Shown: positions 14,553 through 45,060 of the stretch, piece by piece
How positions within the stretch are numbered: the stretch's first letter is position 1
How the letters are laid out: each line of letters starts with the position of its first letter
IMG/VR virus record: IMGVR_UViG_3300030376_001752
Location: 4,118-68,117 of that record
Reading direction: 5' to 3' (one strand)
Origin: a virus
Lineage: Duplodnaviria; Caudoviricetes
Length of the DNA stretch: 64,000 bases
Translations under genes and position numbers: made by a program
Notes under the pieces: model-generated
What the model saw: the letters and a program-made list of their open reading frames with translations, nothing else
The model's database searches: none
What the model was told of the DNA's origin: nothing

Positions 14553-17500
14553 ATGGGATATTTCAATAGAAAATATTATAATACAGATAACGGTATAATA
14601 GACATTAGTGAACTCGATGAAAACCAGCAAATAAAGTTTTTCGTAAATAATCCTAATGCTGTAGAAGCAACTGAGCTTGAAACTAGAGAAGCTGGGTTAA
14701 CTAGACCAAACTCTGAAATTGTTAGTGAAGAGAATAGATTGTCTAAAAAAATGGAACAAGAACAAGAAGAAAAGTTTTTGTATTTAAAGTATGGAACGCC
14801 TAGACAAGATGATATTGAAATTAAACCAAGAATGTATGTAGGTGGTAAAGGTGACGAGGTTTCTAGAGAAGATTTTAATAGCGATACAGAGTGGAAAGCT
14901 TATCAGGTATGGAACGGTGATTTGAAAAGAGAAGCTGTACCTTTAAAGACTCAGGTGTACCAAAGAGTTAGAACTAATGACTTAGATGTTGGTGTTCAGA
15001 CTAGTGACTATTATTACAATAGAGACAAAAAAACAGATTTTGTAGACACACATTATGATAGCAAATCTTTAGAAGAAGCCGGTATAGATGTTGCTAATTT
15101 TCAAGGTTACTTAGAAAGTTCAGGTTATAGAGACGAATTTGATGAATATATAAATGATAACTCTTTTGATGGAAACTGGATTTCAGGCCAAAAAGAGTTA
15201 GACATAGCAAAAAACCGTACGTTAAAAGGTTATTTAGAACGTTATTTACAAGACGAAAATAATAGATTTACCGAAAAAATGTTTGTTGATGATTACTATC
15301 ACAACCAAGATAAATATAAAGATTACAAAGATTATTTTGAAGCATATGAAGCGTTTAAGACAGAGCAGTTTGGAGCTAAGAACGGTGGTGGTACTGTGTT
15401 TGATTACGAAAAACTAAACGCATATTCCGATGTTAATTACAAGAATGTCAAAGATAGAGATGCTTTAAATAGAAGAAATTTTATAAAACATATCGATGAT
15501 GTAGAGCAGCAGGGAGACGTTGTTGGTGGTGGTGCCGGTGCTTTAGAATTTTTTACTAGTGCTATTGGTGGAGCTTGGAGTGGATTAGATGAGTTATCTA
15601 TAACACTAGCTGATTGGTTTTGGATGGACGGCGTTGCTAATAGACGTAGATTTATTGACCAAGAACAAGATCTAGGTGATGCAGAATCAAACGCACAGTA
15701 TATGCTTTTTAGAGGTAAAATAGGTGAGATTGATGGTGTTCAATACGGCGTGGGTGATGATGGTAGTGTATATAATATAACTGAAAACCGAAATGTAACA
15801 AACGCTTTAACAGTAAATGAGATTGAAGAAATAACACAAACAGCAGAAAAAGAGAACTGGGAAGATGGTTATGATTGGTCAGCGAGAGGAAGTAGTAATA
15901 TGTCTGGGCATGTTATTGGTAATGTTATTTTTCAAATATTCGGTACAAAAGGAGCTGGTTATTTAAGAAACGTTGCTTCGTTAAAATATTTAGCAGCCGC
16001 AAATGGTTTTAAAAACGTAGCTCAATATGAAAAATACTTAAGACAAATAAAACTAAACCCTGAAAGACTAAAACAGTTTGGTGCAGCTAACAAAGGAACA
16101 TTTGGTAAAAAACTACCTTTTGATCCTAGAATAGTAGACGCTACAACTTTTCAAACTTTTTACGGTGCTACTACTGGATATGAAAGAACATTAAACGCGG
16201 CAGTAAACGCTGGTATACCTCGTGACGAGGCAGAAAAATTAGCAAGAACTGCTTCTGGGCAAATGGCGTTATTGTATGGTGTTACAGGTCCTATAAATCC
16301 TAGATTAGGAGGAATGAAATGGCTTGATAAACAATACTCTAAAATCTTTGGTAATGCTCAGCTTAACAATGTAATTAAAGCTTATAAACAAGGAGGTTTA
16401 AAAGGTGCTAACGATCAAATAAAAAAAGGTATAAAAAGTTTTATACCTAACAACCCAGGACAAATGCACAAAGCATTTTGGAGCGAAGGTGCAAGAGAAG
16501 TTTTACAAGAAAACATACAGCAAGGTGGTGAGTTTTTATTGGTTAACAGAAGTTTAAACGAGGCAGCTGGCCAAGAATTTTTAAAACAAGATTACACTTT
16601 AAGAGATTTTATAGAAACATCTGTTCTTTCTTTAGCTGCAGGTGGTTTAGTTGGTGGTTTTAGTTCAGCAAGCACAAGCACTATTAATAGTAAAAAAGCT
16701 CAGCTACAAGATATGTGGTCGTTGTCTAATAACATGAAGCAAACCAAAGAGTTATTAGGAGGAGCTGTAGAGAATGACATGTTAACTCAAGAAGAAGCAG
16801 ATGATCTTTATAAGTCTATACAGTCTATTGGTAAAGCTAAGCTACCTGCTTGGATGATAAACACTCCTGAAGAATATATTGAAGCTGCTAACGTACAAAA
16901 CGCGTTGGAAGTTTTAAAAAGAAAATCAAAGAAATCAGGTGATGAATCATCTAATAAAGATCAAATAGCAGCGCTAGAGAACAACTTAAAAGACATTGTT
17001 AAAAAAGCAGCGTCAGCTGAAATCAATAAAGAAATAGATTTTGTAGGTAAGATAGTTGGTAAGAAAAACATAAAAGTTTTTAATACGCCTGAAGAAATAA
17101 AAAAAGCTGGTTTTAGCTCTGAAATGTTTACAGATGGTTGGTTTGAATCAAACGGGGTTATATATATAAACAAAGAAATGGCTGCAGCAAACCAAGCTGT
17201 TAGTGTAGCTTCTCATGAGCTGTTACATAAAATATTAAAAGCTGAGTTTAAAGGTAATCCAGAAATACAAAAAGTTGTAAACGAGTTTAAAGAAATACTA
17301 AAAGAAAAAGGCGTGTGGAGCGCTATAGAAAGAAGAGAGGCTTTGTATAAAGCTGATGGTAGAGCTGATTTAGATGGTGTAGATGCTGATGAGTATTTGA
17401 CAATGTTCTCTGATGCACTAGCTAAAAATGAAATACCTTTTGAAGCATTAGAAGAAGCACAGTGGAAACAAATAGGTAGATCTATAATGACCGCTTTAAA

Positions 17501-20500
17501 AAAGAAACTTCCTAAAGCTTTAGGTGGACAAACAACAGAGTTTGCTACTGGTAGACAAGTATATGACTTTATATTAGATTATCACAAAAACATAAAGAAA
17601 GGTAGAATATCTAACCAAGCACAAAGAATGCTTGACATGTTTGAACCTGATGAGTTACAGAAAGATGATAAAGGTAATACTATAAATAGAAAAAGATCTA
17701 TTAATATAGAAAAAGAATCTAATCAAGAAATACTTAACCAACTTCCTAATGGTTTTAACGAGGCAACAGGTCAACAAGAAACTGAATTTATAAAAAGCAA
17801 ACAGTTTCAAGCTGCAAAAGCATTGATTGATAACGGCGCTTTTGATAGATTAATAGGTGCTAAGTTAGCAAGTGGTAGTAATATATTTGGAAGACCTAGA
17901 GAAGAGGTTATGGAAGAGATACGTGCTCAACTTGTAAGGCACTTAGAAAACTTTAACCCAGCAAAAAACAAAGATCTATTTGCTTATTTAAACTCTTACA
18001 TAGGTAGAAAAGTAGGTACTGTTACAACTAGAATAAAAAAGAGAAGAGTAAGAACTACGCCTTTAACTAAAGACATTAAAGGTGAAACAGTTGAAACACA
18101 GATAGCTGATATGGCTCCTGATCCAGAACAACAAATGATACTTGCTGAGGAACAAGCGGCTGCACTTATTAAATCAACTGAGCTTAAAATGGGTAAGAAA
18201 CTAGACCCAGATACTGTAGCTAAAGTTAAAAAACTTATAGTACCTATAATTAGAGATATGGATGTAAAGCTAACAGCTGATAAATCTATAAACGCTAAGA
18301 ACTCACCAATGATAAAGTATTTAAAAAATGCTTTAAAGAACTCTTTAGTATATGACGCTATGATTGCTGAGCTTGGTAAAGGTGAAGTTACAAAACAAAA
18401 GATACTTGAGTTTAAACAAGATGTTTTAAAAAATGCTACTACAACTTGGCTGCAAGGTAAAACACAGAAAAATGGTACGGTTAATGGAGGTATACCACAA
18501 GCTATAGATAAAGTTATAAAACTACAAGACGGTAGTGAAGTTAGAGTATCTTATCCTGATTGGGTTGGAGAAAAAATAGCTATAGAAAAAATGGGTACTG
18601 ATAACGCTGGTAGAACCGCGGGTCATGCCTTAGTATTTAGAAGTGAGCAAGAAGTAAGTGATGAAGCTTACATGTCTCAGTTTTACAAAGATGGCAAGCT
18701 AATAAGAAATAGAAAAGAATCTTTAGCAGAAGAAATGGCTAAGGAAATAGGTATAGAAATAATACTTGACGAACTTGTTAATAATCCTAAAGGTGAAATA
18801 GCACAAGCATTTGAACAAAATCAATTAGCAAAAGGTGTTATGAATGCTGTGCAAAAAATTGGTGAAGTATTTGTACAAGCAGACAGATCAGGTATAAAAA
18901 GATCTTTATCAGCAAACAAAGAAGTTGCTATCGCTAGATTTGAAAGACTAGCTATATTAGGTTACGAAGGTAACTTTAAATCTTTAGCAATGGAAAAAGA
19001 AATGCTGAGAGGAACTCCTTACGAGTTTGTTATAAAAATATATGAAGAAAACTTTGCACTTGATGCTGAAGCTTTAACTGGTTTTATTGATCCAATGAAA
19101 GCTTACGCTGAAACATTACCAGAAAGCGATCCTACCAAAAAATATATACAAGAGTTTTTAAACATGGATAAAGCTCAGAAAATAAAAGCTATAGCTAGTT
19201 TTTCAGAAGAATTAGCTAAAGTTATACCACCTGAGTTGTTTAAACTACCTAATCTTGGTTACGACTTTTTAGGTGTATTTGATAGAGTTATAAAACCTAA
19301 TTCACCTGAAGGGGTTAAAATTAAAAAAGCAGCTGACAGTGATGTTGATGGTGAAGTCCCTGCTTGGATGGAAGATATACTACCTATATTCAGCACAGGT
19401 GGTATTGTAGGTTCTATAGTAAACAAAATACAAAACAAAACATTTGCTAGTAAAGAAGAAGCACAGCAAGAGTTTGATAAACTATATGCTGAGAAAATAG
19501 AAAAAGCAAACATTGCTAACATTAAACTCTTTAACTATATTGTAGACGCTGCTACTAAGGTTGTTGCTAAAAACCCTAAGCTTATGCCTGGTTATTTAGC
19601 TTTGTTCCAAAGTAACACGGGGGATATAATAAAAGGTATGAGAGCTTTTGGCGTATTGCAAGATGTAGAAATACATGCTGAGATACAAGCTCCTTTTATT
19701 AGTAAAGATGGTACTAAAGGTTATAAATCAATAGACGCTACAAATAGAAAAGCTTATGATGCTGGAGATATACAAATAAATTATAACCACCCTTTATTTG
19801 CTAGAGTAAAAAAATATGTTGACGATCAAATTGCTGAACTACAAGAAGAACTAGCAAACACAACAGCTCCTAAAAAGAGAGAGAAGTTATTAAAAAGAAT
19901 AAATAAAGACAGAGATGAATTATATAGAGCTCTACTAAGACCTTACACAGAACATAAAAACCCTGCTTCAAATAAATTTGGTGATATAGCAAGAGACCAA
20001 ATGGTGATACTTAGCAAGATAATAGGTAAAGGTTTGACAGATTCTCAAATAGATGTCGCTATAAACGCTTATCAACTGCACAACGGTAAGCTTGCAGATA
20101 TTATATCTGATTTTACAATGACTATAAACACTTCTGTTATATCAAAGATACAAGATGATATACATAGTAAGACGAGTAGTTTAGGAGATGCTAGAGTTTT
20201 TGCTATTGAAAATCAATACGTACAAAATTTATATCCTATAAAAGGACAGGTTCCAGCTTTAAAAAGAGCTGACAATGTTTTAAAAGCAGATGTTGATCAG
20301 TTTGTTAAGATAATGGAGCTGCAAAATGCTATCAACACATCTAATAGCACTAAAAGAAGTTTAAGCCCTAGAGGTATTAGTGTTTATGATTTTGACGACA
20401 CACTAGCTTTTAGTAAAAGTCAAATAATAGTAACAATGCCTAATGGTAAGGTGACTAGAATTACACCTGCTAAGTTTGCTACTGATGCAACTAAACTAGA

Positions 20501-22961
20501 AAAGCAAGGTGCTCAATTTGATTTCAGCGAATTTAATGATGTTATAGATGGTAAACCTGGACCGTTAATACCTAGGTTAAGAAAAGCAATTGATAAGTTT
20601 GGTAATAAAAACATATATGTATTAACAGCTAGACCACAAGCGTCTGCACTAGCTATATATAAATTCTTAAAAGGCTTAGGTGTAGAAATACCTTTAGAAA
20701 ACATTACAGGTTTAGAAAACGGTAAGCCTAGCGCTAAAGCTAATTGGATGATTGGTAAGATAGCTAAAGGTTATAATGACTTCTACTTTGTTGATGATGC
20801 TATGAAAAACGTGTCAGCAGTTAAACAAGTTTTAGAAAACTATGATGTAAAAGGTAAAGTTCAACAAGCTGTTATAAAAAGAAAAAGAAGTCTTAACATC
20901 GACATCAACCAGATGATTGAAAGAAACACTGGTGTTGGTGCAGAGAAAACATACTCTAAGGTTGTAGCTAGAAAGAAAGGTGCTGGTAAATTCCAAAACC
21001 CATTTGTTCCTTACAGTGCTGAAGATTTTAGAGGTTTAACATCTTACACTTTATCTGGTAAAGGTAAACAAGGTGAGCAAGATCAACAGTTCTTTGAAGA
21101 CAATTTAATAAATCCTTACATAAGAGGAGTTGCTGCCATGGAAACGATTAGGCAAGCAATGAAAAACGAATATGATAGATTGTTAAAAGCAAACCCAGAG
21201 CTTAGAAAGAAAATAAACAAAGAGGTTCCTGAATTAGGATTTACACATGACCAGGTTATAAGGATATACTTATACAACAAAGCTGGATATGAAGTTCCTG
21301 GTATATCTAAAAGAGATTTAAAAGCTGCGGTTGATTTTGTTACTAAAAACGAAGACATAGAATTATTTGCTAATGAACTACTTTTATTAACAAAAGGTAA
21401 TCAATGGGTAAAACCTGATGAATTTTGGGATGTTGGTAGTTTATTAAAAGATCTTAACACGTTTAATGATGATGTAAATAGAAAAGAATATCTAGCTGAG
21501 TTTATAGAAAACGTTGACATTATGTTTGACGAAGCAACCTTAAATAAACTTGAAGCTATATATGGAACAAAATATAGAAAAGCTTTAGAGAATATAATAG
21601 CTAGAATGAAGTCTGGTAGTAATAGACCAAGTAAAATGGGTACTACAGAAACAAAATGGATGAATTGGTTAAATAATTCTGTTGGTTCTATAATGTTCTT
21701 TAACAGAAGATCTGCTTTGTTACAGATGTTATCATTTGCTAACTTTACAAACTGGTCTGATAATAATCCAATTGCGGCTGCTGCGGCTTTTGCTAACCAG
21801 CCTTTATATTGGAAAACATGGGTAAGAATATTTAACTCTGATAAATTAAAACAAAGACGTGGTGGTTTAAAATCAGATTTACAAGAACAAGAGATTGCTA
21901 ACGCTGCTAAAAACTCTAAAGGTAAACCTGAAGCTATTATAGCTTATTTATTGAAAATAGGTTTTACACCTACACAAATAGCAGATAGTATGGCTATTGC
22001 TACAGGTGGTGCTAGCTTTTTAATAAATAGAACTAAAACATATTTAAAACAAGGTTTATCACAAGAAGAAGCTGATGCTAAAGCTTTTGAAGATTTTAGT
22101 AAAATATCTGATGAGACTCAGCAGTCTGGTGATCCAATGCTTATATCATCTCAACAAGCTAGTCATTTAGGTAGGATAATACTAGCGTTCCAAAACACTC
22201 CTATGCAGTATACGAGATTAATAAAGAAAGCTGCACAAGATTTATACAATGGTAGAGGTGATGCTAAAACTAATATATCTAAAATATTATATTATGGATT
22301 TGTACAGAACTTAATATTTAACGGTTTACAACAAGCTTTATTCGCATTAACAGATCCGTTCTTTGATGATGATGAAGAAGAATATGAAAAAGAATTAGCA
22401 AAGAAAGAAGTAAAAATAATAAACGGTATGATTGATAGTATATTGAGAGGTACTGGTTTATACGGAGCTGTTGCTGTTGGTTTAAAAAATACATACAGAA
22501 CTTACATGAAGCAAGAGGAAAAAGGTTATAGAGCAGATCATGCTCACACTCTTATTGAGTTAGCCAACATTTCACCTCCTCTTGGATCTAAAATGAGAAA
22601 AGTTTACTCTTCAATTTTAGAATACAAATACAACAAAGCATTAATTAAAGAAAGAGGTTGGTCGTTAACGGCTGACGGTAGAGTAAACGTTGCTCCCAAC
22701 TATATGATACTAGCTAATCTTGTTTCTGCTGGATTTAACGTTCCTCTTGATAGAGCTATTATAGAGATTAACGGTATTTCAGAATCACTTGATAATAGAA
22801 ACAATGCAATGCAAAGAATAGCTTTACTACTAGGATTTAGAACTTGGGATGTAAATGTTAAAAATGAAGAAAATGATTTTATAGAAGCTTTCTATAAAGA
22901 ATTAAAAGAATTAGAAAAGAAGAAGAAAAAGAGGCACACACCACGTAAAAGAAAGAAATAA
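14553..22961 (+). CDS. Giant (2802 aa) ejection/polyvalent polyprotein: zincin peptidase, sigma-region-2-like domain, HAD phosphatase
   Basis: Gly-rich hydrophobic helices near both ends; HELLH (HExxH) at about 17214; sigma-like segment at about 17800-18170; HAD motifs DFDDT / LTAR / K / FVDD at 20370-20850; four KRS[L/I] motifs. Confidence 0.75.
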   Translation: MGYFNRKYYNTDNGIIDISELDENQQIKFFVNNPNAVEATELETREAGLTRPNSEIVSEENRLSKKMEQEQEEKFLYLKYGTPRQDDIEIKPRMYVGGKGDEVSREDFNSDTEWKAYQVWNGDLKREAVPLKTQVYQRVRTNDLDVGVQTSDYYYNRDKKTDFVDTHYDSKSLEEAGIDVANFQGYLESSGYRDEFDEYINDNSFDGNWISGQKELDIAKNRTLKGYLERYLQDENNRFTEKMFVDDYYHNQDKYKDYKDYFEAYEAFKTEQFGAKNGGGTVFDYEKLNAYSDVNYKNVKDRDALNRRNFIKHIDDVEQQGDVVGGGAGALEFFTSAIGGAWSGLDELSITLADWFWMDGVANRRRFIDQEQDLGDAESNAQYMLFRGKIGEIDGVQYGVGDDGSVYNITENRNVTNALTVNEIEEITQTAEKENWEDGYDWSARGSSNMSGHVIGNVIFQIFGTKGAGYLRNVASLKYLAAANGFKNVAQYEKYLRQIKLNPERLKQFGAANKGTFGKKLPFDPRIVDATTFQTFYGATTGYERTLNAAVNAGIPRDEAEKLARTASGQMALLYGVTGPINPRLGGMKWLDKQYSKIFGNAQLNNVIKAYKQGGLKGANDQIKKGIKSFIPNNPGQMHKAFWSEGAREVLQENIQQGGEFLLVNRSLNEAAGQEFLKQDYTLRDFIETSVLSLAAGGLVGGFSSASTSTINSKKAQLQDMWSLSNNMKQTKELLGGAVENDMLTQEEADDLYKSIQSIGKAKLPAWMINTPEEYIEAANVQNALEVLKRKSKKSGDESSNKDQIAALENNLKDIVKKAASAEINKEIDFVGKIVGKKNIKVFNTPEEIKKAGFSSEMFTDGWFESNGVIYINKEMAAANQAVSVASHELLHKILKAEFKGNPEIQKVVNEFKEILKEKGVWSAIERREALYKADGRADLDGVDADEYLTMFSDALAKNEIPFEALEEAQWKQIGRSIMTALKKKLPKALGGQTTEFATGRQVYDFILDYHKNIKKGRISNQAQRMLDMFEPDELQKDDKGNTINRKRSINIEKESNQEILNQLPNGFNEATGQQETEFIKSKQFQAAKALIDNGAFDRLIGAKLASGSNIFGRPREEVMEEIRAQLVRHLENFNPAKNKDLFAYLNSYIGRKVGTVTTRIKKRRVRTTPLTKDIKGETVETQIADMAPDPEQQMILAEEQAAALIKSTELKMGKKLDPDTVAKVKKLIVPIIRDMDVKLTADKSINAKNSPMIKYLKNALKNSLVYDAMIAELGKGEVTKQKILEFKQDVLKNATTTWLQGKTQKNGTVNGGIPQAIDKVIKLQDGSEVRVSYPDWVGEKIAIEKMGTDNAGRTAGHALVFRSEQEVSDEAYMSQFYKDGKLIRNRKESLAEEMAKEIGIEIILDELVNNPKGEIAQAFEQNQLAKGVMNAVQKIGEVFVQADRSGIKRSLSANKEVAIARFERLAILGYEGNFKSLAMEKEMLRGTPYEFVIKIYEENFALDAEALTGFIDPMKAYAETLPESDPTKKYIQEFLNMDKAQKIKAIASFSEELAKVIPPELFKLPNLGYDFLGVFDRVIKPNSPEGVKIKKAADSDVDGEVPAWMEDILPIFSTGGIVGSIVNKIQNKTFASKEEAQQEFDKLYAEKIEKANIANIKLFNYIVDAATKVVAKNPKLMPGYLALFQSNTGDIIKGMRAFGVLQDVEIHAEIQAPFISKDGTKGYKSIDATNRKAYDAGDIQINYNHPLFARVKKYVDDQIAELQEELANTTAPKKREKLLKRINKDRDELYRALLRPYTEHKNPASNKFGDIARDQMVILSKIIGKGLTDSQIDVAINAYQLHNGKLADIISDFTMTINTSVISKIQDDIHSKTSSLGDARVFAIENQYVQNLYPIKGQVPALKRADNVLKADVDQFVKIMELQNAINTSNSTKRSLSPRGISVYDFDDTLAFSKSQIIVTMPNGKVTRITPAKFATDATKLEKQGAQFDFSEFNDVIDGKPGPLIPRLRKAIDKFGNKNIYVLTARPQASALAIYKFLKGLGVEIPLENITGLENGKPSAKANWMIGKIAKGYNDFYFVDDAMKNVSAVKQVLENYDVKGKVQQAVIKRKRSLNIDINQMIERNTGVGAEKTYSKVVARKKGAGKFQNPFVPYSAEDFRGLTSYTLSGKGKQGEQDQQFFEDNLINPYIRGVAAMETIRQAMKNEYDRLLKANPELRKKINKEVPELGFTHDQVIRIYLYNKAGYEVPGISKRDLKAAVDFVTKNEDIELFANELLLLTKGNQWVKPDEFWDVGSLLKDLNTFNDDVNRKEYLAEFIENVDIMFDEATLNKLEAIYGTKYRKALENIIARMKSGSNRPSKMGTTETKWMNWLNNSVGSIMFFNRRSALLQMLSFANFTNWSDNNPIAAAAAFANQPLYWKTWVRIFNSDKLKQRRGGLKSDLQEQEIANAAKNSKGKPEAIIAYLLKIGFTPTQIADSMAIATGGASFLINRTKTYLKQGLSQEEADAKAFEDFSKISDETQQSGDPMLISSQQASHLGRIILAFQNTPMQYTRLIKKAAQDLYNGRGDAKTNISKILYYGFVQNLIFNGLQQALFALTDPFFDDDEEEYEKELAKKEVKIINGMIDSILRGTGLYGAVAVGLKNTYRTYMKQEEKGYRADHAHTLIELANISPPLGSKMRKVYSSILEYKYNKALIKERGWSLTADGRVNVAPNYMILANLVSAGFNVPLDRAIIEINGISESLDNRNNAMQRIALLLGFRTWDVNVKNEENDFIEAFYKELKELEKKKKKRHTPRKRKK

Positions 22962-35795: not shown

Positions 35796-35817
35796 ATTAA
35801 AAGGTTTTTGGTCTATA

Positions 35818-35828
35818 TATATAATTAC
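35818..35828 (-). promoter_or_regulatory. Candidate middle/late promoter motif GTAATTATATA
   Basis: Intergenic, upstream of erf on the minus strand. Confidence 0.5.
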
Positions 35829-35866
35829 ATATAGAATTGTAAAATTAAATTAACTTAACACCTAAC

Positions 35867-36631
35867 TTACAGGTAATCAAGCACTTGCGAGTGGTCTACG
35901 TTTTCTATTAATTTGTTTACCGCTTGCTTTTTTAGTTGTGAGACTCTTACATAAGAACTACTACCTTCAATATTTAATATTGATGCTATCTCTTTTGCTG
36001 AGTGTTTCTCACAGTCTAATCCATAACTTAATCTTAACACATTGTATTCTCTATCATCTAGATGTTTCTTTAACAAACTAGTTAAATACATATTAAGTAA
36101 GTTCATGTTGTATGGCTCGGATTTGTCTGGTATTTGATATATCATATTCTCATCATTGTTTGGTTTGTCATCAATGCTTAAGAATATTGAGTTGAAAAAC
36201 ATTGCTACCATTTTCTTATCCTTGCCAAAGTTTTTACGTATTTCGTTTAGCTTATGCTCAGGTATACGTATGTCACCTCTATGAATATCTATTGATCTTC
36301 TTATCGCGCCTCTAATTCTTTTAGATAAAAAGCTTTTCATTGTCTGCTCTTTATCTTCAGACTCATTCATTCTTTCCCAATCAATTCTATCCACAGCTTT
36401 TGTCAAGCCAATTCTTCCATCTTGTATAAGATCTCTTATGTCTAACACTCCAGAAGCTTGTTGACTTGTAGAGAATTTTCTAGCTAAGTTTTCTACTAAA
36501 GGTAGAAATTTAGTTATCAATTCATCTCTTGTGTACAAATGATAATCTGTACCGTAATCCGGTAACCTTTCTAAGGTTTCTTCAAGGTCATTCTTATCTC
36601 TAATGTAGCCTTGAATATTATATTTCTTCAT
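35867..36631 (-). CDS. Phage sigma-70 family RNA polymerase sigma factor
   Basis: Region 2 'LPLVENLARKF...DLIQDGRIGLTKAVDR...IRGAIRRSI'; region 4 HTH 'REYNVLRLSYGL...SAKEIASILN...RVSQLKKQAVNKL'. Confidence 0.9.
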   Translation of the reverse strand: MKKYNIQGYIRDKNDLEETLERLPDYGTDYHLYTRDELITKFLPLVENLARKFSTSQQASGVLDIRDLIQDGRIGLTKAVDRIDWERMNESEDKEQTMKSFLSKRIRGAIRRSIDIHRGDIRIPEHKLNEIRKNFGKDKKMVAMFFNSIFLSIDDKPNNDENMIYQIPDKSEPYNMNLLNMYLTSLLKKHLDDREYNVLRLSYGLDCEKHSAKEIASILNIEGSSSYVRVSQLKKQAVNKLIENVDHSQVLDYL

Positions 36632-37253
36632 TCATCAATTTTTTTTCTCGTTTTAAAGTATCACACATGTGTCTGTGTATTGTTCTTTGTGAAACACCTA
36701 ATAGTTCAGCCATCCAACGAATAGTTATTTTTTTGCCATTGTGGTTTATATCTACCATGCACTGATATATCGTTTCTTTATCTAGCTTGTTTCTACCTAT
36801 TAATTGTCCTACAATTTTTAATTTACCACTAAGGTCTAAACCAGAGTGAGGTTTAAATACTACTTTACGTAGCTTGTTTGCTGGTGGATCACCACCTTGG
36901 TTAAATACATCTTCTATCATAGAATATAATAAATTCTGTTTAATAAAAAAAGTAACGAAACCATTTTCTTTATTAGCTATAAATTTAAATACATACCTCA
37001 TATCATCTTCTAATGATATTTCATCACCATCTACACCATCTATATTTAAATAATATAATACAAGCATGTGCCACTTTAATGATTTGTATGTAGTTATTTT
37101 AGCCTTGCTATTAAACAAGTGATAACATTGATACGTACCATTTTCGTAGTATTTATATTGCTTGGTTTCAATAGTAGGTACATCAGTCGTAGGATCTCTC
37201 CTGTAGACGATGCGTCTATCATTTAACCATTTTAAATTTCTGTCTTGTGACAT
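36618..37253 (-). CDS. HTH-containing DNA-binding protein (regulator or replication initiator)
   Basis: C-terminal 'ITIRWMAELLGVSQRTIHRHM' HTH; its start codon lies inside a 47-bp palindromic element. Confidence 0.65.
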   Translation of the reverse strand: MSQDRNLKWLNDRRIVYRRDPTTDVPTIETKQYKYYENGTYQCYHLFNSKAKITTYKSLKWHMLVLYYLNIDGVDGDEISLEDDMRYVFKFIANKENGFVTFFIKQNLLYSMIEDVFNQGGDPPANKLRKVVFKPHSGLDLSGKLKIVGQLIGRNKLDKETIYQCMVDINHNGKKITIRWMAELLGVSQRTIHRHMCDTLKREKKLMNEEI

Positions 37254-37292
37254 AAGCCTATTACTATCTATATCTTAAGGGCTGTTGTCACA
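37246..37292 (-). promoter_or_regulatory. Palindromic element A (twin of 44976-45023)
   Basis: TGTGACAACAGCCCTTAAGATATAGATAGTAATAGGCTTATGTCACA; 40/48 identical to element B by manual alignment. Confidence 0.7.
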
Positions 37293-37368
37293 GTCCCTTT
37301 TGGTTTTAATGTTAAAAAAATAATTTTATTATTTTTAATAATTCTCTTTCTTAATTTATCTGTCATAT

Positions 37369-38057: not shown

Positions 38058-38270
38058 TTACTCATTGGTTGGTATTATTTCGCCAAATACAATTAGTTCT
38101 ACGTCTGTTTGACTGTAACAGTTTGTTTCTGGCCAGTTAATATATCTATTATATATCAGCAAGTGCTCATCAAGAGGTTGCTTGTAGCAATAATACATTG
38201 CTGTAAATACTCCTGCAAAATAGAACAAAGCTATTATACAGAACTTATCTACTAAATCTAGTTTATTCAT
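38058..38270 (-). CDS. Small membrane-anchored protein
   Basis: N-terminal TM; start moved to 38270, overlapping the ligase stop. Confidence 0.55.
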   Translation of the reverse strand: MNKLDLVDKFCIIALFYFAGVFTAMYYCYKQPLDEHLLIYNRYINWPETNCYSQTDVELIVFGEIIPTNE

Positions 38271-39105: not shown

Positions 39106-39383
39106 AGGTTATCTAATTTGTTATTTACTTCGTCTAATTTTTTCTTTATTATTGCTGCCTTCATGTATTCTTCATTTGTTTCGTACATGTGCATAAGTGT
39201 AGTTAGTCTAGCCATTTCGCCAACTAAGAACTCTTCTTCTGTTTCTTTAAAAGGCAATTGTCCTTTTAGTAACTCACCAACTGTCATCGGTGTATTATAT
39301 TGATGCCAATTAGGACTAGCTGATTTTTCTATTAATTTATCTAATACTCTATCAACTATTATGTTTAATTCATCATCTGTCAT
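39102..39383 (-). CDS. Hypothetical early protein with UVR-like helical C-terminus
   Basis: Starts directly after an early promoter motif; 'EEYMKAAIIKKKL'. Confidence 0.6.
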   Translation of the reverse strand: MTDDELNIIVDRVLDKLIEKSASPNWHQYNTPMTVGELLKGQLPFKETEEEFLVGEMARLTTLMHMYETNEEYMKAAIIKKKLDEVNNKLDNL

Positions 39384-39388
39384 GTTTA

Positions 39389-39420
39389 TATTATCCAACT
39401 TCGTTCGTATTTATATTGTA
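39389..39420 (-). promoter_or_regulatory. Early promoter motif copy 1
   Basis: TACAATATAAATACGAA-N8-GATAATA. Confidence 0.8.
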
Positions 39421-39914
39421 TTTGTAAGAATGTCAACAATTTTCTGTGCGTGACTTCTAACTCTGTTATAATTAGCTATATATCTAGTTTCGCCATTAGC
39501 AAAGTCAGTATAATCCATATCTTTCATGTATTTAGATATAATCTTCTCAGGTTTAAGTACAAACACGTTTTTACTACTATAATTATCATAGCAACTAACC
39601 CATCTGTCTTGTTTACCTGTAAATATAATATAAGTATATTGATGGTCAATATTAGCGTGATCCGCATATAAGTAGCAACTGTCATAGTACATATCATGAA
39701 CTAACTTAGCAGCTAAACGGCTACCGTCACTAGTTGGGTTAGCGTGTAACCAATTAGCGATCTGTATACCTTGCCACTCAGGATAACCGTCATGATGTAA
39801 GTACATATTTACATAGCTTTTGTCACTGAAAAAACTAGGGTTTTCTGCAAAACCAAGCTCTGATTCTTCAGCGTGTCGTCTATCTACGACCATAGTTAAA
39901 TTTCTTGTAGCCAT
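39411..39914 (-). CDS. Hypothetical early protein (YxHxDGYP motif)
   Basis: 167 aa; 'MYLHHDGYPEWQG'. Confidence 0.7.
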   Translation of the reverse strand: MATRNLTMVVDRRHAEESELGFAENPSFFSDKSYVNMYLHHDGYPEWQGIQIANWLHANPTSDGSRLAAKLVHDMYYDSCYLYADHANIDHQYTYIIFTGKQDRWVSCYDNYSSKNVFVLKPEKIISKYMKDMDYTDFANGETRYIANYNRVRSHAQKIVDILTNTI

Positions 39915-39915
39915 A

Positions 39916-40104
39916 TTATTTGGTTTCTATGTAGCCTGCTTCGATTAAATCTTTTAATGTACGCCCGAACCAACCTTGCAGACCGTTATAAAGTTCGTGG
40001 TCGTATATATATTGCCATGCAGCTAAAACTTCGTCGCTGTCATTTGCTTCTACGAAACCTTCAGCTATGCCAACAGCCTCGTAACTAGTCATTTTTCTTC
40101 TCAT
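39916..40104 (-). CDS. Hypothetical early protein
   Basis: 'AAWQYIYDHELYNGLQGWFGRTLKDLIEAG'; start moved to 40104. Confidence 0.65.
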   Translation of the reverse strand: MRRKMTSYEAVGIAEGFVEANDSDEVLAAWQYIYDHELYNGLQGWFGRTLKDLIEAGYIETK

Positions 40105-40105
40105 A

Positions 40106-40417
40106 TTATTGTTCTTTAAATAACGCATAGCCAAGCTTTGCATAGTTAATAATGTCAGCAAACCTAGATTCTATTGGTTCTGCTTCAGTTAAATCAGGAT
40201 TTTTTACGTGAGCAGCAACAGAACTACATTGCTTATCAAAGAATATAAGCCATACAGTTAAAGGATCTACACCAGCTTTAGCTGCAGTAGCCTTGAAGTT
40301 AGCCAACACGTCGTCACTTCCATTAGTATACTCTGGACCCTTGTGGTTCATAGTAGATTGAGCTAGTATATCTAACTCGTTAGTTAATTTATTAAATTCT
40401 ATCGTAGTCATAATCAT
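40106..40417 (-). CDS. All-alpha NTP-PPase-like / nucleotide-modification-associated (DUF1599-like) protein
   Basis: 'KGPEY...DVLANF...DK...IESRFADIINY'. Confidence 0.55.
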   Translation of the reverse strand: MIMTTIEFNKLTNELDILAQSTMNHKGPEYTNGSDDVLANFKATAAKAGVDPLTVWLIFFDKQCSSVAAHVKNPDLTEAEPIESRFADIINYAKLGYALFKEQ

Positions 40418-40425
40418 TTTTTTAG

Positions 40426-40499
40426 ATGCGCAGGAAGGATTCGAACCTTCGACCTCGAGCTTATGAGGCTCGCGAGCTGACCAACTGCTCCACCGCGCA
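40426..40499 (-). tRNA. tRNA with CAT anticodon (Met-like, atypical identity elements)
   Basis: Full cloverleaf: TGCGCGG/CTGCGCA acceptor, GAGC/GCTC D-stem, CGAGC-CTCATAA-GCTCG, GAAGG-TTCGAAT-CCTTC; U73; no encoded CCA. Confidence 0.9.
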
Positions 40500-40511
40500 A
40501 TGTGTATAGCA

Positions 40512-40769
40512 TTAATCTAGCAATACCATATAACCTGCTGAGTCCGTACTTCTGAACCAGTCTAAACCTTTGTAGAAGTCTTTAATTATCTTCTCATCAG
40601 TATTACCCATTTCAAAAGTCATTTGTGCACCCATTATAAAGTCATACATTGCTAGTTGTGCTGCTGTTAATTTATATTCTTCTCCGCTGAACGGATTTGT
40701 TACTGTATCACCTTCAGTATATACAGCTCCATTAAACCATTTTGGTAATTTGTTTTTATCTTTATTCAT
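40512..40769 (-). CDS. Hypothetical early protein
   Basis: 85-aa ORF in the early gene run. Confidence 0.65.
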   Translation of the reverse strand: MNKDKNKLPKWFNGAVYTEGDTVTNPFSGEEYKLTAAQLAMYDFIMGAQMTFEMGNTDEKIIKDFYKGLDWFRSTDSAGYMVLLD

Positions 40770-40995
40770 CTTTATTTAGGAATTTATCACCGTACATAAC
40801 ATCATGTGCAGTAAGTTGGTATGTATATAAGTCAGAATAAGAGCATAGATCACTAACGTCTGACACTGTTAGCTCTGACCATATGTTACTAGCCATAAGC
40901 TTGTAAGATAATCTCTTTGCTGAGTCATACTTCAAAGCATTAATCTCAAGAGTTGTTTGAATGTTTGGTCTTAGTAGTTCGTATAAGTTTTTCAT
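40762..40995 (-). CDS. Hypothetical early protein
   Basis: 77 aa, directly downstream of promoter copy 2. Confidence 0.65.
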   Translation of the reverse strand: MKNLYELLRPNIQTTLEINALKYDSAKRLSYKLMASNIWSELTVSDVSDLCSYSDLYTYQLTAHDVMYGDKFLNKDE

Positions 40996-41013
40996 ATTGT
41001 ATTTATTTAATTA

Positions 41014-41045
41014 TATTATCTAACTTGATTCGTATTTATATTGTA
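41014..41045 (-). promoter_or_regulatory. Early promoter motif copy 2
   Basis: TACAATATAAATACGAA-TCAAGTTA-GATAATA. Confidence 0.8.
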
Positions 41046-41120
41046 ATATCAAGGGTGACACCATGCACAGTGTCCAAGCTTTCTGAGGTGTTAACCGTCC
41101 TTCTTGTTTTACCCTGTTAG

Positions 41121-41167
41121 AGAACATGGTGGGATTCGAACCCACACTTTAGTACCGTAGCATGTTC
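41121..41167 (-). ncRNA. tRNA minihelix 1 (acceptor stem + T-arm, no D or anticodon arm)
   Basis: GAACATG-(15 nt)-GTGGG TTCGAAT CCCAC-CATGTTC-T, followed by CTAA. Confidence 0.65.
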
Positions 41168-41261
41168 TACCATAATTACTACTTGTCACTACGACTGGCT
41201 TTGTACAACTGATACCTCAAGGAAGCCAAGGCGTCGATTTACTGTTAAAGTAATAAATTAG

Positions 41262-41422
41262 TGGACGTGGCAGGATTCGAACCTGCGTTACCGGGTTGCG
41301 GTTGGATTCAACTAAACTGAGGCTGCCTCAATTAGCAACTCTTGCAGCAAGATTAACACCGTTGCTTTGAGTGTAAGTTTAGTTTACTGTTACCGATTTC
41401 CGGTCAATACCTCATCACGCCC
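41262..41422 (-). ncRNA. ssrA: Miniature tmRNA-like RNA (161 nt)
   Basis: GGGCGTG/CACGTCC acceptor with G3.U70 and A73; D-loop analogue ATGAGGTATTGAC; CCGG/CCGG helix; TAAC linker; T-arm GCAGG-TTCGAAT-CCTGC. Confidence 0.75.
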
Positions 41423-41532
41423 ATAAAGTAGCAGTTGTAGACTGGTAGTTAACTAGTATTGTCATTTATCTACAATTTCTGTTTTGCGAACCATAGTAGG
41501 AATTACCGCTAACGTGACCAGTATGCCGCCAC

Positions 41533-41784
41533 TTAGTTTCCAAACTCTATACCGCTTCTAGATGTCACCATCCATTCACAGTCTTGTAACTTGTGTCCTG
41601 CTCCGTATAGAAACGCTTCGCAAGATTCACAGTCTGGATTCCACTTATTTTCTTTGTTACATAAAGCGCTAATGTCATATCTATATACCTTACCAACTGT
41701 AAAGTCTAGTACAAATACATACTTAGCTACTGTATATTCTTTTTCTTCTTGCATTTCTGCATATGCTTTTTTTGAATCACTCAT
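41533..41784 (-). CDS. Hypothetical early protein
   Basis: 83-aa ORF. Confidence 0.6.
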   Translation of the reverse strand: MSDSKKAYAEMQEEKEYTVAKYVFVLDFTVGKVYRYDISALCNKENKWNPDCESCEAFLYGAGHKLQDCEWMVTSRSGIEFGN

Positions 41785-41797
41785 AATTATTATATTA

Positions 41798-42007
41798 TTA
41801 TCTTAAACAAGTACCGTAACCTCTACGAGCGGTTAGCTTACGTATTCTAGCTGCTTGGGCCTTTGGCATTATCTGAATAGTATTGCCGGTTTTGTGGTAT
41901 GTGATTGCCACACAGCCATAAGCTTCCGTACTGCTACAGTTAACACATTCTTTGTAACCGAGTGCTAACCGCTGCGGAGGTATTATATTATTACATTTAC
42001 ACTTCAT
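41798..42007 (-). CDS. DksA/TraR-like C4 zinc-finger protein
   Basis: 'CKCNNIIPPQRLALGYKECVNC' matches the C..C...IP..RL.....C..C pattern; start moved to 42007. Confidence 0.6.
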   Translation of the reverse strand: MKCKCNNIIPPQRLALGYKECVNCSSTEAYGCVAITYHKTGNTIQIMPKAQAARIRKLTARRGYGTCLR

Positions 42008-42201
42008 TATCCTCTTACCCAGGTTAAACCTTTGTGATTGAACCACTCGCTTATACCTTCTTTGTCAGTGTCAGCATTATATATAAAGCCGAAGTTGTTA
42101 GGTATACTACATATATCGTAAGCAATCCACTTTTGATTGTTGAGTAGTAATTGTTTAGGGTCTTTTTTAGAGTATTTGATAGTTTTGATAGTGTCTGTCA
42201 T
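42007..42201 (-). CDS. Hypothetical early protein
   Basis: 64 aa, downstream of promoter copy 3. Confidence 0.6.
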   Translation of the reverse strand: MTDTIKTIKYSKKDPKQLLLNNQKWIAYDICSIPNNFGFIYNADTDKEGISEWFNHKGLTWVRG

Positions 42202-42238
42202 AATTGTAAAGTTTATATTATTATTTTAAATTCATTTA

Positions 42239-42270
42239 TATTATCTGATTGTATTCGTATTTATATTGTA
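42239..42270 (-). promoter_or_regulatory. Early promoter motif copy 3
   Basis: TACAATATAAATACGAA-TACAATCA-GATAATA. Confidence 0.8.
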
Positions 42271-42273
42271 AAA

Positions 42274-42744
42274 CTATTCTTCATCTTCATCTTCTTCTAC
42301 AAAATATTCACCTGAATCTAATAACTCGTCTTTCTTTTCTGACTCTTTTTCTTCGTATACATCTGTCCACCACTGTTCTAATTCGTGGTTGAAGTCATAT
42401 TCCATATCGTCCCATAAGTGAGGTTCTACCCACACATCAGAACCAGATACTAATTCGTTTATCGCTTGTTCTGACCACTCTGGATAATCTTCATATTGAT
42501 AACCATCTTGTGAAACATAAGGTTTCTCGTCGTGAGTACACCAATATATATCATAACTATCAGCTGTTGACTCGCTATATATTTTTAACATGTGTCTACT
42601 ATCATTCCAGTCACTAGTGTTATCTAACTTACCACCATATTCTGTGTTGATATATTCTAGAAGCCAAGTCGCATCTGGCTCTTCCATGATGCCATCTTCT
42701 TCTAATTTTTCCTTTAAAATTTCGTCCGTTAATAATTCGCTCAT
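42274..42744 (-). CDS. Highly acidic early protein (possible DNA mimic)
   Basis: 156 aa, very rich in Asp/Glu and aromatic residues. Confidence 0.6.
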   Translation of the reverse strand: MSELLTDEILKEKLEEDGIMEEPDATWLLEYINTEYGGKLDNTSDWNDSRHMLKIYSESTADSYDIYWCTHDEKPYVSQDGYQYEDYPEWSEQAINELVSGSDVWVEPHLWDDMEYDFNHELEQWWTDVYEEKESEKKDELLDSGEYFVEEDEDEE

Positions 42745-43148
42745 TATGCATAGTTTTTAATATAATACTCTAACATATAATTTAAACGAGCAAGGCCAGA
42801 GTATATTAATGCTCTTGCTGTTTGTGTATAGTGTTTAGTAACTAAACCATTTTCAGTTAAATAAGTCCACCTAACATTTTGCTTATATTGTTTATTAAGC
42901 TGATAGTTTGATGAGCAACTATTACAGTTTCTTACATAACCACTCTTATATACTGCTAATCTTAGCTTGTATGATGATGGTTTAAGTTTACCGTTATAGT
43001 AAGCGTATCTAGCAGGCACTGGAAATTCAAATTCTCTTGTACCATTTTTCGCTTGTCTTTGTGTAGTTACTTCTTTGATTCCATATTCTACTAGTAATCT
43101 TCTTGCGTAAGCATTTTCTAATGCCTCTTGTTCTTGTTTCCAGTTCAT
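42744..43148 (-). CDS. Hypothetical early protein
   Basis: 134-aa basic ORF. Confidence 0.65.
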   Translation of the reverse strand: MNWKQEQEALENAYARRLLVEYGIKEVTTQRQAKNGTREFEFPVPARYAYYNGKLKPSSYKLRLAVYKSGYVRNCNSCSSNYQLNKQYKQNVRWTYLTENGLVTKHYTQTARALIYSGLARLNYMLEYYIKNYA

Positions 43149-43149
43149 A

Positions 43150-43356
43150 TTAATGATTTTTAAGTAAGTGATTAGCGATCTTCTCAGCAGTGAGTGACAT
43201 GAGATAACTATGAGCTTCGTTATATTCTAAGGGTGTAGAGCTAAGTAACTCGTCAATCTCACCACTGAGTGTCCAATCGCATATTTTATATATTTCTTTT
43301 ATTGCTTCTTTGCTAGCTTTGTCTGCTAGTCTATCAAATTCTTTAGTCTTGCTCAT
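43150..43356 (-). CDS. Hypothetical early protein
   Basis: Start moved to MSKTKE at 43356. Confidence 0.6.
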   Translation of the reverse strand: MSKTKEFDRLADKASKEAIKEIYKICDWTLSGEIDELLSSTPLEYNEAHSYLMSLTAEKIANHLLKNH

Positions 43357-43579
43357 AATATTCTCTTTTAAATGGTGAGTTCTCATCACCTGGTGCATAC
43401 TTATTCCAGTGGTCTACTAGTTCTTTAGTCCAACCGCCTTGAGCTTTAACTTTTTCGTTAATTAATTCCATTTGTCTTAACCCACCTTTCCAATATCTGT
43501 GGTCATCTGCCATCATATAAGTGAAGTCGTGATGTTTAATCATATCTTTTAGTGATAAGTCGTCGAAGTATTTAGCCAT
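43343..43579 (-). CDS. Hypothetical early protein
   Basis: 'HDFTYMMADDHRYWKGG' motif. Confidence 0.65.
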   Translation of the reverse strand: MAKYFDDLSLKDMIKHHDFTYMMADDHRYWKGGLRQMELINEKVKAQGGWTKELVDHWNKYAPGDENSPFKREYYEQD

Positions 43580-43581
43580 AG

Positions 43582-43701
43582 TTAATTAGTTTTATTGTAT
43601 ATTTCTAACACTTGTTGTCTTTGATTTTTAGTTAATAAAAATGGAGACTTATTAAATAGTTGTTTAGAAATGATTATTAATTGAGTTTGATTGTATAACA
43701 T
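43582..43701 (-). CDS. 39-aa early peptide (not in ORF track)
   Basis: MLYNQTQLIIISKQLFNKSPFLLTKNQRQQVLEIYNKTN; ATG 5 nt after promoter copy 4. Confidence 0.5.
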   Translation of the reverse strand: MLYNQTQLIIISKQLFNKSPFLLTKNQRQQVLEIYNKTN

Positions 43702-43706
43702 ATATA

Positions 43707-43738
43707 TATTATCTATATTAATTCGTATTTATATTGTA
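43707..43738 (-). promoter_or_regulatory. Early promoter motif copy 4
   Basis: TACAATATAAATACGAA-TTAATATA-GATAATA. Confidence 0.8.
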
Positions 43739-43845
43739 ATTCTAACACGGACAAAATATCCATAGTGTTATATAAAAGATATAGAATATAAACATTAGAA
43801 ATATAAAGTTAATTACTATATCAGTTATTTTATTTTTGTTCTTGT

Positions 43846-43980
43846 TTACCATCCGCCAAATGTTATAGTTGGATTATTAAATGCTAAGTGATAAGAAATC
43901 ATTAGTATTCCTGATAGTGCTAAAGTTGCTAGCGAAATTAGTATTGCATTGATTGCAAAGTGTTGAAACTTTCTTTTCAT
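43846..43980 (-). CDS. 44-aa single-TM peptide (not in ORF track)
   Basis: MKRKFQHFAINAILISLATLALSGILMISYHLAFNNPTITFGGW. Confidence 0.55.
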   Translation of the reverse strand: MKRKFQHFAINAILISLATLALSGILMISYHLAFNNPTITFGGW

Positions 43981-44001
43981 AGTTATAAATTTAGATATTA
44001 G

Positions 44002-44042
44002 TTGTCACGAGTGGAATCGAACCACTATTAACCATTGTGACA
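44002..44042 (-). ncRNA. tRNA minihelix 2
   Basis: TGTCAC(A)-(9 nt)-AGTGG TTCGATT CCACT-(C)GTGACA-A, followed by CTAA. Confidence 0.6.
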
Positions 44043-44138
44043 TTTGCTTGTTCGCATTTTTTATAAGTCGCTAAACAACGCGCAACTACGACTTTAGCCA
44101 CCTCAGCCTAATCAGCACTTCAGCTGAGGTATTTTTGA

Positions 44139-44366
44139 CTACGCTTGTACTACTTCGCGTGCAATTACAGGAATGTTATTTGAAGCAGTATAAGATTTGT
44201 ATTTGATAAAACATGGCATAGTTTCAAGTTTTTCTTTCATAACTTCATACACTTTATCGTGATTGTAAGTGACAGTTTTGCCATTTTTGAAGTTAACAGT
44301 AATGTTTTGATTTTTGCCAATTAGTGATTTTCTTATTACAAATCTTTTTGAAATTAAATTGCTCAT
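44139..44366 (-). CDS. Hypothetical early protein
   Basis: 75 aa, downstream of promoter copy 5. Confidence 0.7.
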   Translation of the reverse strand: MSNLISKRFVIRKSLIGKNQNITVNFKNGKTVTYNHDKVYEVMKEKLETMPCFIKYKSYTASNNIPVIAREVVQA

Positions 44367-44413
44367 AGTAAATTGATTTTAGTTATTATTATTATTATTA
44401 TTTCTTATATTAT

Positions 44414-44445
44414 TATTATCTAATGTGTTTCGTATTTATGTTGTA
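44414..44445 (-). promoter_or_regulatory. Early promoter motif copy 5
   Basis: TACAACATAAATACGAA-ACACATTA-GATAATA. Confidence 0.8.
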
Positions 44446-44520
44446 AAAGTAGATAATTTGTTTATATTATATTTTTTAGTGTGTAGTATTGCGCACACTC
44501 TCACAATTTCTAAATATTTA

Positions 44521-44673
44521 TTATAATTTTTCAACAGTGAAATGAGTAATGTTTGAGAAATTAATATCAATGTCAATTAGGAATTGAAGTAATTCGTTGT
44601 CGATTATATTAGTCTCGTGAGTGAGATATAATGGGTCGTCGTCGCGGAAGTTAAATGTAAATTCGTAAGTCAT
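44521..44673 (-). CDS. 50-aa acidic early peptide (not in ORF track)
   Basis: MTYEFTFNFRDDDPLYLTHETNIIDNELLQFLIDIDINFSNITHFTVEKL; first ORF after promoter copy 6. Confidence 0.5.
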   Translation of the reverse strand: MTYEFTFNFRDDDPLYLTHETNIIDNELLQFLIDIDINFSNITHFTVEKL

Positions 44674-44695
44674 ATCGTTTTATTTAGTATATATA

Positions 44696-44727
44696 TATTA
44701 TCTAACGCCATTCGTATTTAGGTGGTA
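44696..44727 (-). promoter_or_regulatory. Early promoter motif copy 6
   Basis: TACCACCTAAATACGAA-TGGCGTTA-GATAATA. Confidence 0.75.
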
Positions 44728-44975
44728 AATGCTATACATTATTTATAACTGTATGTAGCATGGCGAAACGTAGATAATATTGTTGTGAACTGTATATAGT
44801 AATGCTATACATAACGGTTAGTTGTGTGTATGCTGAGCAGAGTAAACACCAAAACAATATGCAATATGCAGATAAACAGGCGGGGCTAGTCAATATATAT
44901 ATGACTTTGGATAATGGGCTATGTGGTGGGAGGGGAGGAGCAACACTGTACCTCTATATATCTAACGTGTTTTTT

Positions 44976-45023
44976 TATGACAATAGCCTATAAGTATATA
45001 CTTAGTAATAGGCTTGTGTCACA
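44976..45023 (+). promoter_or_regulatory. Palindromic element B (twin of 37246-37292)
   Basis: TATGACAATAGCCTATAAGTATATACTTAGTAATAGGCTTGTGTCACA. Confidence 0.7.
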
Positions 45024-45049
45024 CTTTACTTAAATTTACTTTTTACTAT

Positions 45050-45060
45050 GTAATTATATG
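45050..45060 (+). promoter_or_regulatory. Candidate middle/late promoter motif GTAATTATATG
   Basis: At the head of the rightward operon. Confidence 0.45.

Follow-up and report, generated by a model that had tools for sequence, protein, structure and literature searches.

A 64,000-nucleotide stretch from an uncultured marine phage (hereafter the window; bases 4118–68117 of the 68,117-bp IMG/VR virus record IMGVR_UViG_3300030376_001752) carries six copies of a 32-bp bipartite element on its minus strand. Our comparisons support the view that these six sites are dedicated, phage-specific promoters and not host-type ones, and we think it fairly probable that they are read by a sigma-28-like factor that the phage itself encodes, working with the core RNA polymerase of the host.

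A bipartite element repeated six times in a leftward gene block

Scanning the window with the pattern given in a preliminary description of this DNA returned six matches with 0 mismatches, every one of them on the minus strand and within 39389–44727, against zero matches in 100 shuffles of the sequence (0 expected by chance); the whole 68,117-bp record yielded the same six sites and no further ones. The spacing between the upstream block and GATAAT is constant, at 8 nt, in all six. With a weight matrix built from relatives, the six sites scored 37.7–48.4 bits and nothing in the window fell between 12 and 37 bits. Conservation reaches 1–2 nt further upstream than the pattern (wTTACAA), and downstream it takes in two further invariant positions, an A directly behind GATAAT and a purine 7 nt after it. 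A minus-strand gene lies directly downstream of each site, and all six sites fall within the leftward gene block that extends from a divergent control region (about 44,730–45,060) to the sigma-factor gene. A k-mer search for a second repeated promoter class recovered only the present motif. The sites, with the starts predicted for them and the genes that follow, are:

Promoter P1, 44696–44727, minus strand; G of GATAAT at 44702, predicted start A at 44690; then, after a 17-nt leader, a 50-amino-acid open reading frame (ORF; 44521–44673).
Promoter P2, 44414–44445, minus strand; G of GATAAT at 44420, predicted start at 44408; then a 75-amino-acid ORF (44139–44366), a structured RNA region (about 44000–44140) and a 44-amino-acid ORF.
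Promoter P3, 43707–43738, minus strand; G of GATAAT at 43713, predicted start at 43701, the A of an ATG; then a 39-codon leaderless ORF (43582–43701, minus strand) and genes as far as 42274.
Promoter P4, 42239–42270, minus strand; G of GATAAT at 42245, predicted start G at 42233; then ORFs at 42007–42201, 41798–42046 and 41533–41784, and tmRNA-like/tRNA-like RNAs at 41120–41530.
Promoter P5, 41014–41045, minus strand; G of GATAAT at 41020, predicted start at 41008; then ORFs at 40762–40995 and 40512–40769, a tRNA-Met (40425–40499) and ORFs as far as 39411.
Promoter P6, 39389–39420, minus strand; G of GATAAT at 39395, predicted start at 39383, the A of an ATG; then a leaderless 93-amino-acid ORF, DNA ligase, a pyrimidine-dimer glycosylase, the HTH-211 gene and the sigma gene.

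The predicted start thus coincides with the ATG in two of the six, P3 and P6. The 39-codon ORF behind P3 is shorter than the ordinary length limit of an ORF list. In the P4 unit, a short tmRNA-like RNA (41259–41422, minus strand) scored 27.5 bits against Rfam (E 3e-8), short of the gathering score of 47, and pieces resembling a tRNA T arm occur in the P4 and P2 units, at 41129–41145 and about 44000–44140, respectively; ARAGORN did not call them.

Conservation among relatives and the geometry of the sites

The motif is shared by over 100 related IMG/VR contigs: an exact-pattern scan found 113 stretches with it, many of them on contigs of 64–72 kb, and a relaxed scan of those loci produced 283 sites, of which the 264 unique ones are the base of our conservation counts. 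Their consensus is wTTACAAaaTAAATACGAA-N8-GATAATA-wAAaT-R. Two features that the search pattern did not demand are present in 264/264 sites: an A directly after GATAAT and, 7 nt beyond the hexamer (position 12 counted from the G), a purine. An ATG falls exactly at that purine in 58–59 of the 264 (22–23%), and 95% of such ATGs start an ORF that runs for 30 codons or more (median 73), compared with 35% for random ATGs. Across relatives the median predicted leader is 14 nt, and the sites are co-oriented with genes almost without exception.

The sites thus show the signature of the sigma-70 family: an A at position 2 of the hexamer, a T at position 6 and a purine, the putative start, ~7 nt downstream. 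Because of the invariant A, the invariant purine start and the leaderless ATGs, we consider GATAAT fixed as the −12 to −7 box of sigma-70-family promoters, with the start placed by prediction. Numbered from that predicted start, the motif would read T-38 T A C-35 A A A a T-30, AAATACGAA (−29 to −21) and N8, followed by G-12 A-11 T-10 A-9 A-8 T-7 A-6, N5 and the purine at +1. C-35 is found in 96% of sites, and A-33, A-32 and A-31 in 91, 70 and 61%, respectively; positions −15 to −13 are variable (W, T/A, R).

Among relatives the 32-bp form predominates but is not the sole one, and the upstream block differs by clade, with four classes that carry TTACAA plus ACGA, TTACAA only, GGTTGACACGA, or CTCACC. 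Loci L188 and L199 keep TTACAAACA and have lost ACGA, L209 and L243 have AAAAAGGTTGACACGA and have lost TTACAA, and L215 and L218 have CTCAC-type upstream boxes. GATAATA and the purine start are retained in all of these variants.

In the 70,691-bp record of one relative (G001; loci L135–L138), ~6.4 kb including six promoter sites is found at both ends, probably because the genome is circularly permuted and its assembly overlaps itself.

The sites differ from the promoters of the probable host

A megablast search against known phages found no match. The genome encodes a crAss-type muzzle protein, terminase, GroEL, ribonucleotide reductase, ERF and a primase-helicase, and a giant 2802-amino-acid ORF (14553–22961) closes the structural gene block. 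The capsid-type protein is 42–47% identical to its counterparts in Flavobacterium, Cellulophaga and Maribacter podophages. Only 1 of 34 genes is preceded by a Shine-Dalgarno-like sequence, and the A content of the leaders is 52%; few Shine-Dalgarno sites and A-rich leaders are described as typical of Bacteroidota in one report (PMC6847099). Because of the capsid similarity, the near-absence of Shine-Dalgarno sequences and the A-rich leaders, a Bacteroidota host, probably a flavobacterial one, is well supported.

In flavobacteria, sigma-A reads TAnnTTTG at −12 to −5 together with TTG near −33, the sigma factors of F. psychrophilum comprise only sigma-A, sigma-54 and seven extracytoplasmic-function factors, and 5.5% of F. 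psychrophilum mRNAs are leaderless (PMC9723704). The phage box coincides with the sigma-A consensus only at A-11 and T-7 and has no TTG at −33, so that none of the six sites qualifies as a Bacteroidota sigma-A promoter. Host-type sites are also scarce elsewhere: TTG-N18-22-TAnnTTTG occurs only twice on the sense strands of the window, TAnnTTTG is not enriched there, and no host-type promoter was found for the sigma operon, TAGCTTTG at 38226 lying inside a coding region.

Much of what the preliminary description had claimed about these sites is borne out by the scans: six minus-strand copies with a fixed 8-nt spacing, each just upstream of a gene and none containing TAnnTTTG. Its proposal that they are dedicated phage promoters unlike the host consensus agrees with the absence of the sigma-A elements, and its remark that GATAAT looks like a −10 box, together with its expectation of a start about 6–7 nt after it, is borne out by the purine 7 nt after the hexamer in 264/264 sites and by the leaderless ATGs.

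A phage sigma-28-like factor as the probable reader

Among the candidate readers we favor the sigma factor encoded at 35867, because the register of the motif is that of sigma-28 promoters and because the factor has an invariant Arg where sigma-28 reads −12G. The preliminary description had counted dependence on this very sigma as a refutation of its model, and it is this sigma that the register and the Arg point to. The gene and its partner are:

Phage sigma factor, 35867–36631, minus strand; 254 amino acids with regions 2, 3.0 and 4, sigma-28/FliA-like.
HTH-211, 36618–37253, minus strand; 211 amino acids with a C-terminal helix-turn-helix; encoded by a gene that overlaps that of the sigma and is conserved together with it.

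The best match of the phage sigma among solved structures is Aquifex sigma-28 FliA (1rp3, E 4.6e-10), and its second-best NCBIfam match is FliA_WhiG; only the sigma-70 superfamily model passes its NCBIfam cut-off. The P. aeruginosa sigma-28 promoter of fliC has TCTAAAG at −36 to −30 and GCCGATAA at −15 to −8; in the open complex A-11 is flipped out, and −12G is contacted by R80 of sigma-28, the equivalent of sigma-70 W434 and a conserved residue of group 3 sigmas (PMC12784957). The phage motif has G-12 A-11 T-10 A-9 A-8, the core of GCCGATAA, in the same register. It resembles the sigma-28 −35 element only in part: C-35 and the AAA at −33 to −31 agree with TCTAAAG, the bases at −36, −34 and −30 do not, and some clades are without this part altogether. 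In the protein, the sequence SFLSKRI(R/K)GAIRR, which includes KRIRGA, places an invariant Arg (R105) in alignment with sigma-28 R80. Regions 2.3–3.0 are almost invariant over ~50 homologues (60–77% identity), which parallels the invariance of the −10 box.

The sigma gene was found in 5/5 and in 25/30 motif genomes; the other five of the 30 are contigs that end just downstream of the motif cluster, so that all relatives open to assessment have the gene. Upstream sequence of 8 kb or more was available for 46 sigma loci, of which 42 have 1–12 canonical sites on the sigma strand, and the remaining four have variant sites that keep GATAATA. At least 144 contigs carry the sigma. The cultured relatives phi14:2, phi38:1, MW202828 and elemoF have neither the motif nor the sigma.

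We propose that host core RNA polymerase carrying the 254-amino-acid factor would bind the sites with sigma region 2 reading the GATAA core, Arg105 on −12G and region 4 over the C-35/AAA stretch. Transcription would begin 7 nt after the hexamer, often right at an ATG and thus producing a leaderless mRNA, and its output would comprise the leftward small genes, tRNA-like RNAs, DNA ligase, the repair glycosylase and the sigma itself. The circuit would be self-reinforcing, because the sigma gene is among the products of its own promoters. In this scheme we infer the reading protein, the timing and what the ATACGAA block does.

Several observations weigh against the phage sigma as reader. Its gene lies downstream of P6 and in the same direction, which leaves the first sigma molecules unexplained; candidates for the spark are leaky host transcription, packaged sigma and an injected sigma-like module. 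Because the circuit needs such a spark, the label 'early' reflects gene content and position only. The sigma scored 57.3 bits against TIGR02479, far short of the cut-off of 189.6, and so falls outside the FliA/WhiG family, and the 'GC' at −15/−14 of the sigma-28 extended −10 element is not conserved in the phage sites. Apart from the outlier locus L215, comparison of the upstream-block variants with the helix of sigma region 4.2 showed no matching changes. Finally, the co-occurrence of motif and sigma is a clade trait and not independent evidence, and the case as a whole is built from sequence.

Alternative readers and alternative functions

The preliminary description had instead assigned the sites to a sigma-like domain in the virion polyprotein:

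Sigma region-2-like module, 17742–18356, plus strand; amino acids 1074–1258 of the 2802-amino-acid ORF; rival reader or igniter.

Such a domain does appear to exist. Its top Pfam match is Sigma70_r2 (E 0.036, sub-threshold), and a model predicted from 15 homologues reached a predicted local distance difference test score of about 90 over residues 13–105 and superimposed on region 2 of many sigmas with Z of 6–7.6 and a root-mean-square deviation of about 3 Å over 85–90 residues. Sigma factors made up almost all of the top 50 Foldseek rows, with every E value at 0.07 or above and none reaching 0.001. The module therefore probably has a real sigma region-2-like fold. An iterated hidden Markov model of the module spread to 34/37 giants and also to a second 'copy' at the C terminus; the C-terminal part was set aside as profile drift because its alignment shows no sigma-like motifs. 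Within the giant ORF, conservation in all relatives is confined to the last ~680 residues (42–64% identity, 25/25 genomes), which include a C-terminal domain with invariant SPP.GSK ... PLDR ... GW motifs; the modules of the N-terminal and middle parts have been shuffled or have diverged strongly.

If the giant protein is a virion component, the module could be injected, bind host core polymerase and read the promoters at time zero. An injected starter would solve the ignition of a sigma gene that lies downstream of its own promoters, in a phage nearly devoid of host-type promoters, and both the top Pfam match and the predicted fold agree with such a role. We nevertheless regard the module as an unlikely reader, because the reader of an invariant box should itself be conserved: aligned copies are only 12–25% identical, with zero invariant columns, and a single-sequence search detected the module in just 4/30 motif genomes, while the −10 box is invariant in all clades. 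The pairing of promoters and virion domain that the preliminary description had proposed is thus not supported. A profile comparison of the module with the phage sigma found no match (probability 0.4%), the Foldseek E values are weak throughout, and the Z scores are middling for a helical bundle. Only gene position places the giant protein in the virion, the protein has no similarity to virion proteins of phi38:1, MW202828 or elemoF, and a domain consisting of region 2 would leave the conserved −38 to −21 block unexplained. A hand-over, in which the injected module starts the GATAATA promoters with host core polymerase and the newly made sigma-28-like factor then takes over, strikes us as quite unlikely; were it true, the module would be the first virion-delivered sigma factor and would explain how the phage can do without host-type promoters.

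The −38 to −21 block invites a different explanation, in which host polymerase with a host sigma reads GATAAT while a phage or host activator binds the block. T4 middle promoters work in this way, combining a sigma-70 −10 box with a MotA box through sigma appropriation, and the phage sites resemble them in pairing a good −10 box with a phage-specific upstream box that replaces the normal −35. Such a model has no bootstrapping problem, the A-11 and T-7 that all sigma-70-family region 2 domains capture are present, and clade variation of the upstream block that is independent of the region 4.2 helix fits a separate DNA-binding protein. Yet we identified no MotA or AsiA homologues, and the block variants are not mirrored in the helix of the HTH-211 protein, co-conserved though it is (no clear pattern, bar the outlier locus L215). 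The box is moreover not host-like, matching TAnnTTTG only at A-11 and T-7 without TTG at −33 (PMC9723704), in contrast to the middle promoters that host polymerase reads in the crAss-like Cellulophaga phage phi14:2 (10.1101/2020.03.07.982082), which in the phi14:2 genome are clear, plain TTG-N20-TAnnTTTG sites. A host sigma aided by an activator is therefore improbable. Even less credible is an unrecognized phage RNA polymerase, either a crAss-like or an N4-like virion enzyme, despite the crAss-type muzzle protein and a giant ORF in the place where crAss-like phages carry their virion polymerase. The giant protein lacks the conserved DFDxD of that enzyme (a DxDxD search found one DSDVD only, not conserved in homologues) and matches no solved-structure sequence, phi14:2 gp66 (6VR4; 10.1101/2020.03.07.982082) included, and no Pfam or PHROG entry; a PF00940 search of the phage genome was without match, but so were its controls, and it therefore carries no weight. 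The phi14:2 virion polymerase makes the early transcripts, which share no common motif (10.1101/2020.03.07.982082). The conserved DNA hairpin of N4 early promoters is absent, since the sites form no hairpins (minimum free energy 0 to −1.8 kcal/mol, no better than shuffles), and the geometry of the sites is of the textbook sigma type. Nor do they look like T4 late promoters, which gp55 reads and which have TATAAATA at −10 and no upstream element: TATAAATA is present in four window copies, but at about −32 to −25, and is not conserved in relatives. Lastly, the sites might be no promoters at all but operators, packaging or recombination sites, or RNA-level signals; repeats inside one genome could be homogenized by duplication, and the evidence comes from sequence. 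Their strict co-orientation with downstream genes, their intergenic placement ahead of genes, the fixed distance to leaderless ATGs, the invariant purine at the canonical start position and the replacement, in one relative, of another promoter-like element ahead of the ERF gene make a non-promoter function very doubtful.

Other conserved elements near the sigma operon

Twin palindromes, GTGACAnnAGCC ... GGCTnnTGTCAC, lie at 37250–37297 and 44977–45023 and are both kept in five related genomes. The former covers the ATG of HTH-211, the gene that heads the HTH–sigma pair, and the latter sits upstream of the rightward operon, within the divergent control region; they may be operators for the HTH-211 protein. 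The left palindrome arm ahead of the HTH gene is encoded by the 3′ part of a 32-codon ORF (37268–37365, minus strand; ending ...GTVTTA.K), and a peptide resembling its product is also encoded in another relative (G003).

In four genomes a TGTGTAATTATATATA element stands 20–30 nt ahead of the ERF gene (here at about 35815–35835, minus strand); the relative G002 has a complete early motif in its place. A motif site is found downstream of the sigma start in 12/46 sigma loci. A similar element, ATGTAATTATATG (45048–45060, plus strand), precedes the first rightward gene, and the TGTGTAATTATATATA and ATGTAATTATATG elements may represent a second, extended −10-type promoter class. At 44925–44960 the control region also contains, in its minus-strand reading, a conserved ...ATATATAGAGGTACAGTGTTGC and then a C-rich tract, common to relatives.

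Relation to known transcription systems and implications

A phage sigma with its own promoter class is a known kind of system. T4 gp55 and the sigma of coliphage phiEco32 are phage-encoded sigmas with their own promoter classes, and so are gp28 and gp33/34 of the B. subtilis phage SPO1 (PMC13401047). Like them, the sigma proposed here would redirect host core polymerase to a repeated, phage-specific consensus. In those phages, however, early promoters are the province of the host sigma and later classes that of the phage sigma, whereas here the sigma gene is downstream of its proposed promoters, no host-type early promoters were found and the host phylum is Bacteroidota. The closest comparison in that phylum is phi14:2, with which our phage shares a related host group, the muzzle-protein virion module and a repeated promoter motif ahead of genes; the middle promoters of phi14:2 are of host type, and the present motif is absent from it.

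The likeness to sigma-28 also has limits. The phage sites are without the conserved GC at −15/−14 of sigma-28 promoters and have the extra invariant AAATACGAA spacer block, and the sigma, unlike sigma-28/FliA, is phage-encoded, scores below the FliA cut-off, would act in a non-flagellated host lineage and would often produce leaderless transcripts. A sigma-28-type register in such a lineage, frequent leaderless starts and a sigma gene behind its own promoters are the unusual traits of this system.

Transcription in Bacteroidota phages is poorly known beyond one crAss-like model, and the present analysis offers a precise, testable promoter–sigma pair for a widespread clade of uncultured marine phages. 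Start sites are predicted to the base, and many of them imply leaderless mRNAs, in a phylum whose genes do without Shine-Dalgarno sites. The gap at the ignition step hints that a transcription factor may be injected. Sigma and promoters together may also form an orthogonal set, expected to stay silent in Flavobacteria, which might serve as a genetic tool.

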